Below, one piece after another: positions 1-44,666 of a DNA stretch of 44,666 nt. Made by a program: the position numbers and the translations under genes. The number at the start of each line of letters is the position of its first letter. Within the stretch, counting starts at the first letter, position 1. Source of the DNA: Brevinematia bacterium. GTDB lineage: Bacteria > Spirochaetota > Brevinematia > DTOW01. The notes beneath the pieces were generated by a model. It did not search any database, had not been told where the DNA came from, and was given only the letters and a program-made list of their open reading frames with translations. Location of the stretch: the NCBI GenBank assembly GCA_049968435.1, contig JBMFQU010000002.1, forward strand, positions 1 to 44,666, read 5' to 3'.

Positions 1-145
1 CCCCTAAGTTCTACAATTAGAGATGTTAAAAAGTTTAGGAAAATAATAGAAGGAAGGAATTTTAAGGAATTCCTTTTGCTTTTCCCATGCTCTTAAGCGT
101 CTATAGGAAGCTACGCCCTCCTTTTAATACCTCCTATCATAGAGA
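1..145 (+). repeat. Mosaic intergenic repeat family: tail of one unit plus one degenerate unit
   Basis: The window opens inside a C-box tail (cccctaagttc, compare 4022-4034). Positions 64-143 follow the unit layout: aaggaattccttttgc leader, degenerate C-box, imperfect hairpin aggaag...ccctcct (105-122), and tacctcct box (128-135). Confidence 0.7.
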
Positions 146-158
146 TTATAAAGAAAGA

Positions 159-3625: not shown

Positions 3626-3913
3626 TTATTCCTCATCAAAATCATCTTGAGAATTAAAAATTTCATTAAAAACAGCTTTATCTTCAGGAAAAGAAAATTT
3701 TAAAGTGTAGTGATATTTAAGATCATCTATCTTTTTAAAAGAAAAGCCGTCAAAAATAACTTCAGGAACAGTGTCCATAATATCCATTAATATATCTTTA
3801 TCATTAGGATAATCTCCCTCAATATACCAATAAGGGTAATCATAAGAAACCATATCAGGAGAGAAAAAAGAAATAAGTAAATCTCGTATAGCAATAATCC
3901 TAGAATTATCCAT
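3626..3913 (-). CDS. Small acidic hypothetical protein (95 aa), not HslV
   Basis: ATG at 3913 with GAGGT upstream. The stop lies 3 nt before the hslU start. No recognisable family, and no Thr-protease N-terminus. Confidence 0.5.
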   Translation of the reverse strand: MDNSRIIAIRDLLISFFSPDMVSYDYPYWYIEGDYPNDKDILMDIMDTVPEVIFDGFSFKKIDDLKYHYTLKFSFPEDKAVFNEIFNSQDDFDEE

Positions 3914-3974
3914 CTATTACCTCTTCGATTAAAGTATAATAAAAAACTAAAAATAAATTCAAATAACAAGAAAA

Positions 3975-4400
3975 GTATTTAAAGAATTTTTTAAGAAACC
4001 TCCTTTTGCTTCCCGCCCACCCTCCCTTAAGTTCAGCAGGAGGACTTCGTCCTCCTATTGGTACCTCCATTTAGAAAGCACATTCATCAAATTATTTTAG
4101 AAATCACTCTTAGTATAATGACTACGCCTTCCCATTAGACACCTACTCTATAAGTAAAAAAGATAAAACCCTTACTTCTAATAGAAGGTAAGAATTTTTT
4201 AAGATACTTCTTTTTGCTCCCCGCCCACCCACCCTATAGTTCTTTATTAAAGTTCTAACTTCTTATTATGTTATTCCTCTTATCAAGATCTCCCTTTACC
4301 TATAAGTTCCTAATTCTTAATAACAAATACCGAATCCTGATAGAGTTAAAATTTATTTTAGATTAACGAAGGATAAGTATTCATTTTTAAGCTTAATTAA
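3975..4400 (+). repeat. Mosaic intergenic repeat family, about 2 full units plus fragments
   Basis: C-boxes cccgcccaccctccc (4012-4026) and ccccgcccacccaccc (4219-4234). Hairpin aggaggacttcgtcctcct (4038-4056). tacctccatttag box (4062-4074). Leader gaattttttaaga(a/t)ac occurs at 3984 and 4192. AT-rich terminal box at 4304-4320. Confidence 0.85.
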
Positions 4401-4439
4401 TACTTTTAATAAGCTTAATAATTGTTTTTTAAGTAATTC

Positions 4440-10169: not shown

Positions 10170-10210
10170 AAGTATAATGATAATATCCAAAAGTAACTAA
10201 ATTCAAATAA

Positions 10211-11275
10211 GAATTTTTTGAAATATCCTCTTTAGGAGGGTTTTACCTTCTTTTTTATTACTCTCTAAGGAAGTTATTTTTGCTCCCCACTCGCCCACCC
10301 TTTAGTTCCATGTAAGAGGGTTAACGCCCTCCTACGAATACCTCCCTTTAGTTATTTATGAAAGTTCTAACTTCTTATTAGCCATCTCCTTTAGAAGAAA
10401 GGATAAAATGGTTATTCATAATAAAGTTAGGAATTTTAAGAAACTTCTTTTTGTTCCCCGCCACCCTCCCATAAGTTCAGCAGGAGGACTTCGTCCTCCT
10501 AATAGTACCTCCTATTTAGAAAGATAAGAAAGCAAACTTCTTGATTTTATAAACCATTTTTAGTATTCCCGCCCTTCTAGATTAGCGAAGGCTTCGTCTT
10601 CACTTCTTCCATTAGAAGACAAAATTCTACTCACTCTAATAGAAATTTAGTATTTTTTAGAAACTTCTTTTTGTTTCCCACCCAACCCACCCTTTAGCTT
10701 CAACAGGAGGACTTCGTCCTCCTAGTAGTACCACCTTTAGTTCGTTAGGAAAGTTATACCTTCTTATTATGTTCTTCCTTTAGAAGTAAGAAAGAATAGA
10801 AAATTTTACTCCTGATAGAATTAAGAAAATTCTTTTCGCATCCCGCCCAACCTACCCTTAAACTTCTATAGGAAAGCATCACCTCATTTTGGGATCTATT
10901 TTTATTTATTCAAAGTAGGTTAAATTCTATAAAAAAGTTATTTGCTATTCCTGATAGAAGTTAAGAAATTTTAGAAAGCTCTTTTAGTCCCCCACACGCC
11001 CTTTAGTGCGTTAAGAGGATTTCACCCTCTTATCAATATCTCCCTCTAATTCGTCCAGGAAAATTCTACCTTCATTTAGGTAGCTACTAAAAGTAAGAGA
11101 ATATAGGAAATTCATTTCTAGTAGAATTGAGAGTTTTTAAAATACTTCTTTTAGTAGCACCCCCTTACTTTTGCACGATAAGATAGCTTACACTCTAAAA
11201 TCTCTCTTTACCTATAGGGTATAAGATATTGATGATATTCTCCAATCCCAAATTTCTAATTCCTAATCTGGTAAA
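10211..11275 (+). repeat. 1.1-kb tandem array of the mosaic intergenic repeat family (at least 7 C-box units)
   Basis: C-boxes at 10285-10300, 10456-10470, 10568-10574, 10677-10692, 10842-10857, 10989-11001 and 11158-11165. Hairpins at 10316-10331, 10482-10500, 10587-10601, 10705-10723 and 11012-11032. ACCTCC boxes at 10339-10351, 10506-10519 and 10729-10740. Terminal AT-rich box at 11247-11270. C-box spacing is about 110-170 bp. Confidence 0.9.
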
Positions 11276-12989: not shown

Positions 12990-13475
12990 TTTTTCTACTA
13001 TCAGTACCTTATAATCTTCTTAACAAGAAAGAGTTATTTTCTAAATAAGAATTTTAGAAACCTCTTTTTGTTCCCCACCCAACCCTCACTTAAGTTCTAC
13101 ACAGGAGGACTTCGTCCTCCTATAGCATCTCCTTTAGCCGTCCAAAGTAGGCTTCACCTTCACTGCTTTCAACTAATAAGCAAATTAACATTCATCCTAC
13201 TTTAGAAGTAAAAAGATAAAGGATTCACCCTAATAGAATGTTAGAAATTTTTTAAGAAACTTATTTTCGTTCCTCACCCAACCCCCCTATTAGATTGGCG
13301 AAGGATAAACCTACTTTGATACCTACCTTTAGCCATATAAAGTAGGCTGCATCCCTTTCTATAAGAAAATTATTTACTGTTTCCGTAGAGTTAAAAGCCT
13401 CTTACAAGAGGTTTAAGAAAATTATTTTCAATATCTCAAATTCTATTCTTAATTCTCAAATGCCATCTAAATGGT
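12990..13475 (+). repeat. Mosaic intergenic repeat family, about 2-3 units
   Basis: C-boxes at 13073-13087 and 13272-13287. Hairpin aggaggacttcgtcctcct at 13103-13121. catctcctttag box at 13126-13137. tagattggcgaagg module at 13290-13304 (compare 10578-10592 and 4358-4372). Hairpin cctctt-aca-aagagg at 13398-13412. AT-rich terminal box at 13435-13462. Confidence 0.85.
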
Positions 13476-25458: not shown

Positions 25459-25511
25459 AACTCCAGCATTTTATAAAATGGGAAAATATAATCTCAAATA
25501 AAAGGAATAAT

Positions 25512-25612
25512 CCTTAGAAAACTCTTCTTGCTTCTCACCTACCTTGTAAAGCGTAATAGGACTATTCAACTCTTACAAATTCAAAATCATAAATCACAAA
25601 TTCTAATAAAAT
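25512..25612 (+). repeat. Degenerate single unit of the mosaic repeat plus AT-rich terminal box
   Basis: ccttagaaaactcttcttgcttctcacctaccttgtaaagcg keeps the leader and a decayed C-box. The terminal box is at 25575-25610 (acaaattcaaaatcataaatcacaaattctaataaa). Confidence 0.45.
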
Positions 25613-42416: not shown

Positions 42417-43671
42417 CTAAACAAATTTTAAGCAATCGACTACTTTCAACTTAGAAGCATACCTTGAAGGAAAATAAGAAGAAAAAGCAGAAACAATTAA
42501 AGCGAAAATAAACCCTTCAAAAAAAAGCTCTAGGATTCCATACACCATAAATAACACCCCAAACAGGCATACCTATGTCAGAAGCATTAACACCTTTAAG
42601 TAAACTTGGAATATCATACCCAACATATATCATAAGGAGATCGCCAATAAAACCTAAAATAACACCGAAAAAACCACCTAAAACACCTGTTAGGATACCT
42701 TCTAAGAGGAAAAGCTTTTTAATTTCACCAGGTTTCATACCCATAGCCATAAGGACACCTATCTCTTTAATTCTCTCATAAACCGACATAAGAATATTAT
42801 TAGCAATACCGACACCTGCTATTATAAGTATTAAGAATGAAATGATAAAAGAAGTTGCCCTCTTCTGCTCCATAAGTAAAATAAAATCACCATAAATATC
42901 TTTAATTGTATAAACACTATAACCATCTAACTTTGACCTTATATTATTAGCAACTTCTTCTACTCTTTTAAGGTATGAATCAATACTTTCTCCTTTTCCC
43001 CAGGATACCTTTACATGCACTGAAGTTTTGGTATCATTCAACTTAAGCAACCTATTAGCTCCAGTATATGCCATAAAAACCCCAGATTCGTTAATAGTAG
43101 TGCTTGGGGACTCAATAAGCCCAACGATCTTAAAATCAAGCGAATTATAATCTCCATATAATGTCTTAGCTCTAAGTACTACATTGTCACCTACAGATAC
43201 TCCTAACTTATTAGCAAGTACTTTACCTAAAACAATATCTCTTTCACCTCTAAGATAGTTACCTACCACATACTTCTTAAGTTCAAAAACTTTAGTATCC
43301 ATCTCAGTATCAATTACAGTAACTACAACATATTTGGATCTACCACTTAAAGCAATTTCACCCAAAAATTTAGTTCTATAGGTTAAATCCTCTACTCCAT
43401 CAATACCTTTAATAGTATTTTTAATACCTTCAAAATCCCTTATCCCTTTATCAAGAGGGAAAGCTCTTCTATTTTGATCATAATCTTTGGAGTAAATCAC
43501 AATAGAACTATCAGAAAATTTTACAATACTCTCAACAAGCAAATTATCTATCCCCATAAAAAGAGAATCCATAGCTATGTAAAACATCAAACCTACTCCT
43601 ATAGTCAAAACACTTATAAGTGTTTTTCTTTTGTGTCTAATAATATTCCTTAAAGCCATTTTAAAAAACAT
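42417..43671 (-). pseudogene. FtsX/MacB-type ABC transporter permease with a frameshift at an A8/T8 run near the 3' end
   Basis: The track ORF stops at 42517. The canonical FtsX C-terminus (FFEGFIFALIVSAFSSYFPSRYASKLKVVDCLKFV*) is readable in the adjacent frame down to the stop at 42417-42419. The frames switch inside the A8 run at 42519-42526, and one fewer base would restore the frame. Confidence 0.8.
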
Positions 43672-43674
43672 AAC

Positions 43675-44379
43675 TTACCTCCTTTCATCAGAAAATATCT
43701 GTCCATCTTTCAAAATAATAACTCTTTTAGCATGTTTCTCAACCATAGGATCATGTGTTGAAAATATGAAAGTAGTATTTTCCAACTCATTCATCCTCTT
43801 CATTATTTCAATAACTTCTTCAGCAGTCTCAGAATCAAGGTTAGCAGTAGGCTCGTCAGCAAGAACTAACAGAGGTCTTTTTACCAAAGCTCTAGCAATA
43901 GCAACCCTTTGTTCTTGTCCACCAGATATTTCATTGGGATACTCATTCTCAAGCCCCTTAAGTCCAACTTTATCAATAAGCTCTAAAACTCTACTCTATC
44001 TTTCCTTCTTGCTAATAGAAGGATCTATAGTAAGTGGTAGTTCTATATTCTCCTTCACAGTCAAAACAGGAATTAAGTTATAAGATTGAAATATAAAACC
44101 TATATTTTTCTTTCTGTATTCAGCCAATGTTTTTTCATCTAAACTATTAAGATTAATACCATCATAAATAACCTCTCCACTAGTAGGAACATCAAGACAA
44201 CCAATAATATTAAGCAAAGTTGTTTTACCACTACCTGAAGGCCCCATAATTGATATAAATTCACCTTTATCTACAACTAAATTAATCCCTTTAAGTGCTT
44301 ATACCTTAACTCTCCCTTCTCTCCCATCCTCTCCTTTATAGTAAACCTTCCAAACATTTATTAAAACTAAGATACTCAT
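43675..44379 (-). pseudogene. ABC transporter ATP-binding protein (LolD/MacB-type) with two in-frame stop codons
   Basis: One continuous frame runs from the ATG at 44379. It contains Walker A GPSGSGKTT, signature [15 protein letters not shown] and Walker [10 protein letters not shown]. It is interrupted by TAA at 44299-44301 (GRVKV*ALKGINL) and TAG at 43996-43998 ([17 protein letters not shown]). Confidence 0.85.
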
Positions 44380-44384
44380 AAATA

Positions 44385-44393
44385 CCCCCCCCC
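44385..44393 (-). repeat. G9 (C9 on the + strand) homopolymer at the RBS position of the ABC ATPase gene
   Basis: The - strand reads GGGGGGGGG-TATTT-ATG. This is an exceptional run for such AT-rich DNA. Confidence 0.9.
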
Positions 44394-44451
44394 AAAATTA
44401 ATTATTAGCTAACTATTAAATTTGAAACAACATAATAATGTAAAAAAAATA

Positions 44452-44666
44452 CTTTTAGTATTTCACCAACCCGCCCTATAGTGCGTTAAGAGTGTTTCAC
44501 CCTCTTATCAATATCTCTCTTTATTATCCCACAATCACCTGTTCCAAATTCATATTAGGTACCTACTAGAAGTGAATATAAAGAATTCACTCCTAATATA
44601 AGTAAAAATTTTAGAAACTTCTTTTTGTTTCCCGCCCACCCACCCTTTAGTTCTATACAGGAGGAC
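44452..44666 (+). repeat. Mosaic intergenic repeat family, about 1.5 units running off the window end
   Basis: 44455-44525 is close to 10975-11045 in sequence: C-box at 44464-44476, hairpin taagag...ctctta at 44487-44507, then atatctctc box. A second unit has leader ttttagaaacttctttttg, C-box cccgcccacccaccc (44631-44645), and the start of the aggaggac hairpin at 44659. Confidence 0.85.

Follow-up and report, generated by a model that had tools for sequence, protein, structure and literature searches.

G-quadruplex motifs in a Brevinematia genome probably form one module of a mosaic interspersed intergenic repeat

STAR elements consist of a GC-rich box that recurs with spacers of at least 40 bp in an AT-rich genome; their loci expand and contract, and their function is unknown (PMC3532100). 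BOX elements are modular, structured and species-restricted, were judged to be parasitic and can affect co-transcribed genes (PMC3049150). The GGGNATC and GGGGA(C/T)T repeats of Xanthomonas and Nostoc are quadruplex-forming (PMC4692102), and in the RRS repeat of Escherichia coli a G-quadruplex (G4) on the lagging-strand template causes post-replication gaps (PMC10592627). Here we describe a family of intergenic repeat units with a G-tract box (G-box) on the minus strand, found in a stretch of 44,666 nt from an uncultured Brevinematia bacterium (contig JBMFQU010000002.1 of assembly GCA_049968435.1), the whole of which is called the window below. We hold, with slightly better than even confidence, that the G-box is a module within an interspersed intergenic repeat, mosaic and lineage-restricted, of the kind of STAR, BOX and REP/BIME. 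The comparisons suggest that its G4 potential is inherited and unstable, and that it is not a conserved quadruplex switch.

With the STAR elements of Staphylococcus aureus the family shares a short box whose high G+C content is conspicuous in an AT-rich genome, the form of an intergenic direct repeat and species-specific positions. There is, however, no sequence similarity: the STAR box reads TNTGTTGNGGCCCN, whereas in Brevinematia the box consists of a four-tract G-run motif with defined hairpins and CTAAAGG sub-modules on its flanks. A mosaic build, a variable number of modules of about 45 nt, extensive hairpin potential and restriction to one species group are also known from BOX (boxA-boxB(n)-boxC), RUP and SPRITE of Streptococcus pneumoniae. 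BOX, in contrast, is not homologous, occurs in both orientations and has no G-tract module, and RUP is a MITE, one of the miniature transposable elements of the inverted-repeat type, with terminal inverted repeats, which the Brevinematia family lacks. Descriptively, the family belongs to the STAR/BOX-like mosaic interspersed direct repeats, a class placement that implies no sequence homology to either. REP/BIME elements with RAYT, which can stabilise upstream mRNA, resemble it as intergenic hairpin repeats that cluster, break assemblies and carry a short conserved motif next to the stem, but REP has a GT(A/G)G head and alternating inverted copies, whereas here the heptamer is CTAAAGG, all copies are direct and no RAYT was seen in the window.

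The Xanthomonas and Nostoc repeats are likewise abundant and mostly intergenic, prefer four G tracts, show an ORF-orientation bias (ORF, open reading frame) and vary in copy number. They consist of heptamer microsatellites alone, in genomes of high or moderate GC, whereas the Brevinematia unit holds a single (GGGN)4 box within 110-220 nt of structured sequence at 30% GC. In RRS and at the pilE G4 of Neisseria, which initiates gene conversion, the G4 motif also occupies a single strand of a repeat, or of a defined element. RRS, however, comprises two conserved GC-rich copies of 222 bp at fixed positions, and the Brevinematia family many decaying copies that are known from sequence alone.

Direct-repeat analysis and a reading of the minus strand showed that the unit is a mosaic of roughly 110-220 nt, in which a pyrimidine-rich lead-in is followed by one to three sub-modules of 43-46 nt and then by a terminal core. 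Each sub-module begins with CTAAAGG, continues with a purine-rich, Shine-Dalgarno-like stretch (AAAGGAGGT and variants) and closes with a hairpin. The terminal core reads GAACTAAAGGG-(GGGN)3-4-AACAAAAAGAAGTTTCTTAAAA; 3′ of the G-box GGGTGGGTGGGCGGGG the flank is AACAAAAAGAAGTTTCTT. Just 5′ of the box lies a hairpin that is identical in five units, an 8-bp palindrome AGGAGGAC-GAA-GTCCTCCT. An earlier note on this DNA had placed the G4 motif beside a stable hairpin, and the perfect 8-bp hairpin is indeed 10-13 nt away. The P1 hairpin is preserved (89% paired) through changes that affect both sides in four of its seven pairs. A covariance model (R1), made from 11 aligned cores with two helices specified by hand, found 15 copies in the window, all 15 on the minus strand, which for one window is a lower bound (at least 15) for the family. 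Four decayed copies were added to those listed earlier (43-147, 10528-10622, 11117-11218 and 25494-25598). The copies are spread over six intergenic loci, single or in tandem arrays of 2-7 units and up to 1.1 kb. Four loci lie between co-directional minus-strand genes, or beside a minus-strand gene at a window end, and two between divergent genes (13032-13339 and 25494-25598). Units are 60-87% alike, with recurring ‘spacers’ and fuzzy boundaries, and no terminal inverted repeats were found in the three clusters tested.

The window has 30% G+C, and its plus strand carries more C than G throughout. A regular-expression scan of the whole window found exactly four canonical (G3+N1-7)4 motifs, all on the minus strand (4012-4026, 4219-4234, 10677-10692 and 44631-44645), and none on the plus strand, in agreement with the positions and sequences of the four textbook motifs in the earlier note. 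These also satisfy (G3+N1-2)4, for which about 0.04 matches are expected by chance, and correspond to about one short-loop G4 motif per 10 kb. The box consensus with up to three mismatches has 7 matches against 0.04 expected. G4Hunter, which the note had proposed to run against a shuffled control, gave 6 regions at a score of at least 1.5 in the window compared to 0.6 in shuffles, and five of the six are repeat units. GGGNGGG occurs 21 times, always on the minus strand, and 20 of these lie within the repeat-bearing intergenic DNA (3.0 kb, 6.7% of the window). As had been claimed, the boxes occupy the same position in the unit: those of all units fall in the same columns of the alignment. The excess over chance is therefore real, but the four motifs are copies of one repeat family and not independent events. 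Only four copies contain a putative quadruplex sequence (four runs of at least three G with loops of 1-7 nt on one strand); the 11 others have 0-3 runs. Among the seven further copies that had been credited with three tracts, those at 10285, 10456, 10842 and 13073 have them, whereas 10989-11001, 13272-13287 and 44464-44476 have two G3+ runs. The complementary strand offers C3-C4 tracts with 1-2 nt loops, but an i-motif of this kind is unlikely; tracts as short as these would need acidic pH, and stability at neutral pH is not to be expected. The sole G4Hunter region at or above 1.5 outside the repeats is a G9 homopolymer (44387-44396, minus strand), 7 nt upstream of the ATG of an ABC-transporter ATPase gene (TTTTGGGGGGGGGTATTTATG), possibly a tract in the ribosome-binding region that is prone to slippage.

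Conservation among the copies was expressed as identity to the consensus, for all 15 copies and for the best 11:

12 G-tract positions: 0.76 in 15 copies, 0.87 in the best 11
3′ segment AAACAAAAAGAA: 0.79 in 15 copies, 0.82 in the best 11
3′ segment GTTTCTTAAAA: 0.78 in 15 copies, 0.83 in the best 11
Hairpin arms: 0.66-0.68 in 15 copies, 0.71-0.74 in the best 11
Three loop positions: 0.47 in 15 copies, 0.55 in the best 11

According to the earlier note, the G4 claim would fail if the G tracts were no better conserved than the flanking unit sequence. Among the window copies the tracts score 0.87 against 0.82 and 0.83 in the best 11, and 0.76 against 0.79 and 0.78 in all 15; they are part of a conserved core and are not better kept than their neighbours. 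The four-tract state is intact in only 4 of the 15 copies. For a selected G4 we would look for tracts conserved above their flanks and a four-tract state kept at orthologous sites, and found neither; nothing in the comparisons points to selection for keeping four tracts.

Of all segments, the box varies most between strains. It differs at 7 of 61 aligned positions (11.5%), compared to 18 of 866 (2.1%) in the surrounding intergenic DNA (Fisher p=7e-4), a roughly fivefold higher rate of change. Orthologous sites are polymorphic in tract number, as seen when two units are compared with contigs (L numbers) of same-species metagenome-assembled genomes (MAGs):

u10305: GGGTGGGCGAGTGGGG in the window; GGGCGGGTGGGTGGGG, a perfect motif, in L017 and L019; GGACGGGTGGGTGGGC in L018
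u13290: GGGGGGTTGGGTGAGG in the window; GGGTGGGTTAGGTGGGG in L029; GGGAGGGTTGGGTGGGG, a perfect motif, in L030

In addition, the L016 allele of u13094 lacks one loop T. At u13290 the near-identity between strains (one single-nucleotide polymorphism over ~250 nt) breaks off at the first base of the box. In strain GCA_049699335.1, a 39-nt stretch of u13290 (L030:61-99) is 100% identical to window positions 13049-13087, which belong to u13094, and this patch comprises the G-box and the 3′ hairpin. Such a patch indicates that neighbouring units have undergone gene conversion over a short patch, or unequal exchange.

The data show, or strongly indicate, that units drift apart and decay, and that short patches pass between them through gene conversion or unequal recombination. 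We propose that the family would have been dispersed as DNA, via a trans-acting function or by recombination, and that its arrays would have grown by unequal exchange. The G4 motif would be copied with the unit and then lost, regained or patched by conversion, and the G-box would behave like a short (GGGN)n microsatellite. Because the module is copied with the unit, four perfect motifs could be present in an AT-rich genome without four independent selective events. Any effect on neighbouring genes would most likely come from the bulk structure of hairpins and G-tract, either co-transcribed or lying just upstream of promoters, and not from a dedicated quadruplex switch.

Several observations weigh against the view that the box is a passively inherited module. 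The loops are freer (0.47-0.55) than the G runs (0.76-0.87), as a G4 model predicts, and this contrast fits a G4 or any other function that depends on G runs. Five of the seven between-strain changes in the box fall in loops, and both tract changes are G/A differences at a tract that was already defective. The orientation is uniform (15/15), which a purely neutral element need not show. Moreover, a 3′ helix between the last G tract plus AAC and GUUUCUU is 86% paired in minus-strand RNA and only 52% in plus-strand RNA. Errors in the G tracts of MAG assemblies could inflate the strain differences, several of the comparisons lie near contig ends, and sampling covers a single window of 44.7 kb together with contig ends. 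In this sample we saw neither a mobilising enzyme nor a target-site duplication nor an empty site, and the dispersal mechanism is one that we infer.

The position of the arrays relative to genes and replication bears on the alternatives. As the earlier note had stated, most neighbouring genes are on the minus strand (30 of 40 ORFs), and the G-rich strand is sense to the flanking minus-strand genes. According to GC skew, all G-boxes (15/15 copies) lie on the strand with leading-strand composition, that is, on the lagging-strand template; replication and transcription orientation coincide in the window and are not separable here. The arrays end 80-140 nt upstream of minus-strand start codons, beside promoter-like boxes:

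3933..3966, minus strand, promoter-like TTGAAT-N18-TATACT with the 12-mer TTATTTGAATTT, past the last unit and ahead of the start codon at 3913
10177..10210, minus strand, promoter-like TTGAAT-N18-TATCAT, again with this 12-mer, past the last unit and ahead of the aminotransferase start

Read-through transcripts carrying the G-rich strand had been assumed in the earlier note. The layout does not assure them: two loci lie between divergent genes, the promoter-like boxes stand downstream of the last unit, and the units have no promoters or terminators of their own, all of which speaks against transcription as a necessity. The 12-mer TTATTTGARWTT is common to three minus-strand loci (3955-3966, 10199-10210 and 25490-25501; 0.9 expected). 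It contains a -35-like TTGAAT/TTGAGA and, at three different minus-strand genes, separates the start codon from the last unit; a common promoter module may be part of the array or border on it, or the array may insert beside such a module. The aminotransferase and alpha-glucosidase genes have no Shine-Dalgarno sequence and a -10-like box almost at the ATG, and judging from this they may be leaderless.

In the G4-aware model of ViennaRNA, a G4 is the minimum free energy structure of the four perfect copies (ddG -20 to -31 kcal/mol); of the remaining copies one forms a marginal two-tetrad G4 and the rest none. Intact copies could, in this model, fold into a three-tetrad parallel G4. The 3′ helix and the G4 are mutually exclusive, and in the perfect copies the G4 displaces the helix. 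It is unlikely that the units act as a functional RNA element, in which a co-transcribed hairpin and a three-tetrad RNA G4 would form a REP-like barrier to 3′-exonucleases or ribosomes, or a switch sensitive to K+ or temperature, where the 3′ helix (last G tract with GUUUCUU) and the CCUCC hairpin arm are competitors of the G4. Such an element would account for the sense orientation of the G-rich strand towards all flanking minus-strand genes, for variable loops beside kept G runs, for a 3′ helix that is feasible only on minus-strand RNA and is displaced by the more stable G4 in perfect copies, and for folding z-scores that are somewhat lower on the minus strand. The helix asymmetry hints at a role at the level of minus-strand RNA, but one third of the helix pairs are G-U, a control in which the partner was slid by one base still gave 74% pairing, and a G/T-enriching mutation bias on the minus strand could give the same asymmetry. 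RNAalifold found no consensus structure on the MAFFT alignment. Furthermore, only 4-5 of the 15 copies are G4-capable, the box is hypervariable between strains, two of the five evaluable loci lie between divergent genes, and with promoter-like boxes downstream of the arrays transcription of the units is not assured. Quite unlikely, in our view, is a functional DNA G4 that would fold on the lagging-strand template, or on the non-template strand upstream of promoters, and would stall polymerases, make gaps, start recombination or gene conversion, or tune promoter output. The strand bias of C over G with all 15 boxes on the lagging-strand template, the ends of the arrays upstream of promoter-like boxes, the coincidence of the between-strain hot spot with a conversion patch or breakpoint, and the precedents of a lagging-strand-template G4 in a bacterial repeat (PMC10592627) and of the quadruplex-forming GGGNATC repeats (PMC4692102) are consistent with it. 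Replication and transcription, however, point the same way in the window, most copies lack four tracts, and the conversion patch also spans the non-G 3′ core, which is the best conserved part and hence the most recombinogenic. We give the same low probability to the proposal that intact boxes, on the lagging-strand template and/or in sense transcripts, act as three-tetrad G4s that stall polymerases and seed short-patch conversion. Taken together, the functional G4 readings at the RNA and DNA level are doubtful; they keep some weight because loops vary while G runs persist, and because the orientation is uniform.

Three further explanations do not invoke a quadruplex. Mobilisation of single strands of the REP/RAYT or IS200/IS605 type, with the hairpins and CTAAAGG as signals for a HUH (Y1) transposase encoded elsewhere and the G-box as a passenger, would explain the uniform orientation by insertion into the lagging-strand template. 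It agrees with the sub-module, in which a conserved heptamer is joined to a hairpin that compensatory changes have preserved, with the single orientation that matches the replication strand and with the lack of terminal inverted repeats that this class predicts, but the window holds neither a Y1 transposase nor a GTAG-type head, there is no target-site evidence, and the units are direct tandem copies instead of the inverted pairs typical of BIMEs. We regard it as very unlikely; it concerns the dispersal step only, for which it would be a plausible route, and is compatible with an interspersed repeat. For arrays that bind a nucleoid-associated protein or regulator on duplex DNA, at AAGAAGTTTCTT or at the CTAAAGG boxes phased by 43 nt, one can point to AAGAA-NN-TTCTT in the best-conserved segment, to the sub-module spacing of 43-46 nt (about four helical turns) and to the adjoining promoters. 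Variants of the palindrome are however uncompensated, a candidate protein is lacking and binding to the duplex leaves the hairpin covariation unexplained, which makes this highly improbable. Independent small RNA (sRNA) genes, for example C-rich plus-strand sRNAs that pair their CCC boxes with Shine-Dalgarno sequences as RsaE or LhrC do, are scarcely credible: CCCNCCCNCCC and ACCUCCUUUAG on the plus strand are anti-Shine-Dalgarno-like, but neither strand has a sigma-70-like promoter or an intrinsic terminator per unit, the 3′ helix fails on the plus strand and there is no Rfam match.

The interspersed mosaic repeat, which we prefer, is represented in the window by the following units and parts of units; both window ends fall within units (CM, score with the covariance model):

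1-20, minus strand, cut start of another unit (...GAACTTAGGGG)
43-147, minus strand, decayed unit, CM 38.5 bits
3970..4081, minus strand, core of u4031 with the perfect G-box GGGAGGGTGGGCGGG at 4012-4026, CM R1 109 bits
4039-4055, minus strand, P1 hairpin of u4031, GGAGGAC-GAA-GTCCTCC
4178..4289, minus strand, core of u4239 with the perfect G-box GGGTGGGTGGGCGGGG at 4219-4234 and an AT-rich hairpin variant, CM 85.8 bits
10244..10358, minus strand, u10305 with the G-box GGGTGGGCGAGTGGGG (three tracts) at 10285-10300
10394-10306, minus strand, two CTAAAGG sub-modules of 43-46 nt preceding in u10305
10417..10525, minus strand, u10475 with the G-box GGGAGGGTGGCGGGG (three tracts, marginal two-tetrad G4) and the P1 hairpin at 10483-10499
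10528..10622, minus strand, degenerate unit with the box reduced to GGGCGGG, CM 17.9 bits, E 0.28
10637..10748, minus strand, u10697 with the perfect G-box GGGTGGGTTGGGTGGG at 10677-10692, the P1 hairpin at 10706-10722 and sub-modules up to 10783
10802..10912, minus strand, u10862 with the G-box GGGTAGGTTGGGCGGG (three tracts)
10951..11056, minus strand, u11006 with the G-box GGGCGTGTGGGGG (two tracts) and the hairpin variant AAGAGG-GTGAAAT-CCTCTT
11117..11218, minus strand, decayed unit, CM 26.4 bits
13032..13145, minus strand, u13094 with the G-box GAGGGTTGGGTGGGG (three tracts) and the P1 hairpin at 13104-13120, between divergent genes
13231..13339, minus strand, u13290 with the G-box GGGGGGTTGGGTGAGG (two runs)
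25494..25598, minus strand, solitary decayed unit with the box decayed to GGTAGGTGAG, CM 27.2 bits, between divergent genes
44422..44531, minus strand, u44481 with the box GGGCGGGTTGGTG (two tracts); AAATAC/GTATTT, with T8 after it, replaces the 3′ hairpin
44594..44666, minus strand, u44650, cut by the window end, with the perfect G-box GGGTGGGTGGGCGGG at 44631-44645

The near-palindrome AAGAAGTTTCTT (AAGAA-NN-TTCTT) belongs to the unit's best-conserved part, for instance at 10441-10452, 10661-10672 and 44615-44626, and shares positions with the proposed 3′ RNA helix. Before it stands AACAAAAAGAAG, four A-R-N triplets in a row. By its sequence, AAGAAGTTTCTT could be a protein-binding site on duplex DNA.

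Other identities were tried and rejected. A CRISPR array does not agree with units that are only 60-87% alike and with ‘spacers’ that recur, and Tandem Repeats Finder detected no array, which also removes a simple tandem array. A MITE of the Correia, ERIC or RUP type was rejected on the lack of terminal inverted repeats in the three clusters, and REP/BIME membership on the CTAAAGG head, the direct orientation of all copies and the lack of a Y1 transposase in the window, although hairpins are present. Rfam gave no match at the gathering threshold (only a chance snoRNA match, E=1.8) and ARAGORN found no tRNA; neither a known Rfam RNA family nor a tRNA-derived element applies. Stand-alone sRNA genes were dismissed for want of an own promoter and intrinsic terminator per unit: on both strands such sites occur at background level and are not positioned per unit. 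A UUCG tetraloop in the plus-strand hairpin is contradicted by the palindrome, which has 8 bp and a 3-nt loop on either strand. Possible mini-ORFs behind the Shine-Dalgarno-like boxes have stop-filled frames that are not conserved, and spurious ORFs translated from the units matched no protein in the database at E<=10. The KOPS-like GGGNAGGG had no matches. As blastn found no plasmid or phage match to the family and viral contigs gave no match either, an origin from plasmids, phages or viruses was discarded.

The proteins flanking the repeats are housekeeping proteins (HslU, LepA, MlaE, a LolC-like protein, an aminotransferase, an alpha-glucosidase, glycosyltransferases and others), and their nearest database relatives are Brevinematia MAG proteins with 99% identity. 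No transposase was found among the ~36 annotated ORFs of the window. The same-species MAG contigs L016-L019 and L029-L031 all stop inside or beside units, as a multi-copy repeat is expected to break assemblies. In ~100 kb of relatives (L003, L004, L005, L020 and L021-L028; homologues with 68-80% amino acid identity) we found no R1 match, not one multi-tract G-box and no enrichment of CTAAAGG. A search of GTDB genomes and JGI metagenomes with a strict 23-nt degenerate pattern returned only chance matches in GC-rich contigs, a weak negative from a pattern that is too strict on the left arm. The best-supported reading of these sequence comparisons is that the family is previously undescribed, lineage-restricted and of the same kind as known mosaic interspersed intergenic repeats.

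The related contigs without the repeat carry intergenic islands of 600-900 nt with extreme strand skew (L005:3288-4095, L021:2437-3136 and L003:4100-4811), in which G is 6-10% and C 21-23%, or the reverse. The islands of L005 and L021 are homologous at both ends and have a TTGACA-type promoter-like start; that of L021 lies upstream of dnaN. The islands have no Rfam match and no internal repeats and may be long G-poor or C-poor non-coding RNAs, and a counterpart of the G-depleted island is absent from the window. The ABC-transporter ATPase gene at 43675-44379 (minus strand; Walker A GPSGSGKTT, LolD/MacB-like) has a continuous frame with two in-frame stops, TAA at 44299-44301 and TAG at 43996-43998, upstream of an intact LolC-like permease gene (42517-43671); it may be a pseudogene, a sequencing error or a case of recoding. 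Just past the MlaE stop codon, an AT-rich palindrome of AAGCTT repeats (4383-4428), which shows several differences between the window and L017, may be a bidirectional terminator-like hairpin.

For the Brevinematia, the family means that short-read MAG assemblies are fragmented and intergenic length is inflated. The arrays that end beside promoter-like boxes may influence how neighbouring housekeeping genes are expressed. In general, stable G4 motifs are depleted in bacterial transcriptomes. A genome of 30% GC in which many short-loop G4 motifs are tolerated, in sense orientation and on the lagging-strand template, therefore offers a useful natural test of the question whether such motifs are under selection, are tolerated or cause mutation. 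If G4-seeded conversion takes place, it would itself drive the hypervariability of the box and the turnover of the arrays. If the G-box is a recombination initiator or an RNA switch, hundreds of dispersed units would act as genome-wide RRS- or pilE-like recombination initiators or as G4/hairpin switches in an AT-rich spirochaete, and the family would be a rare multi-copy example in bacteria.

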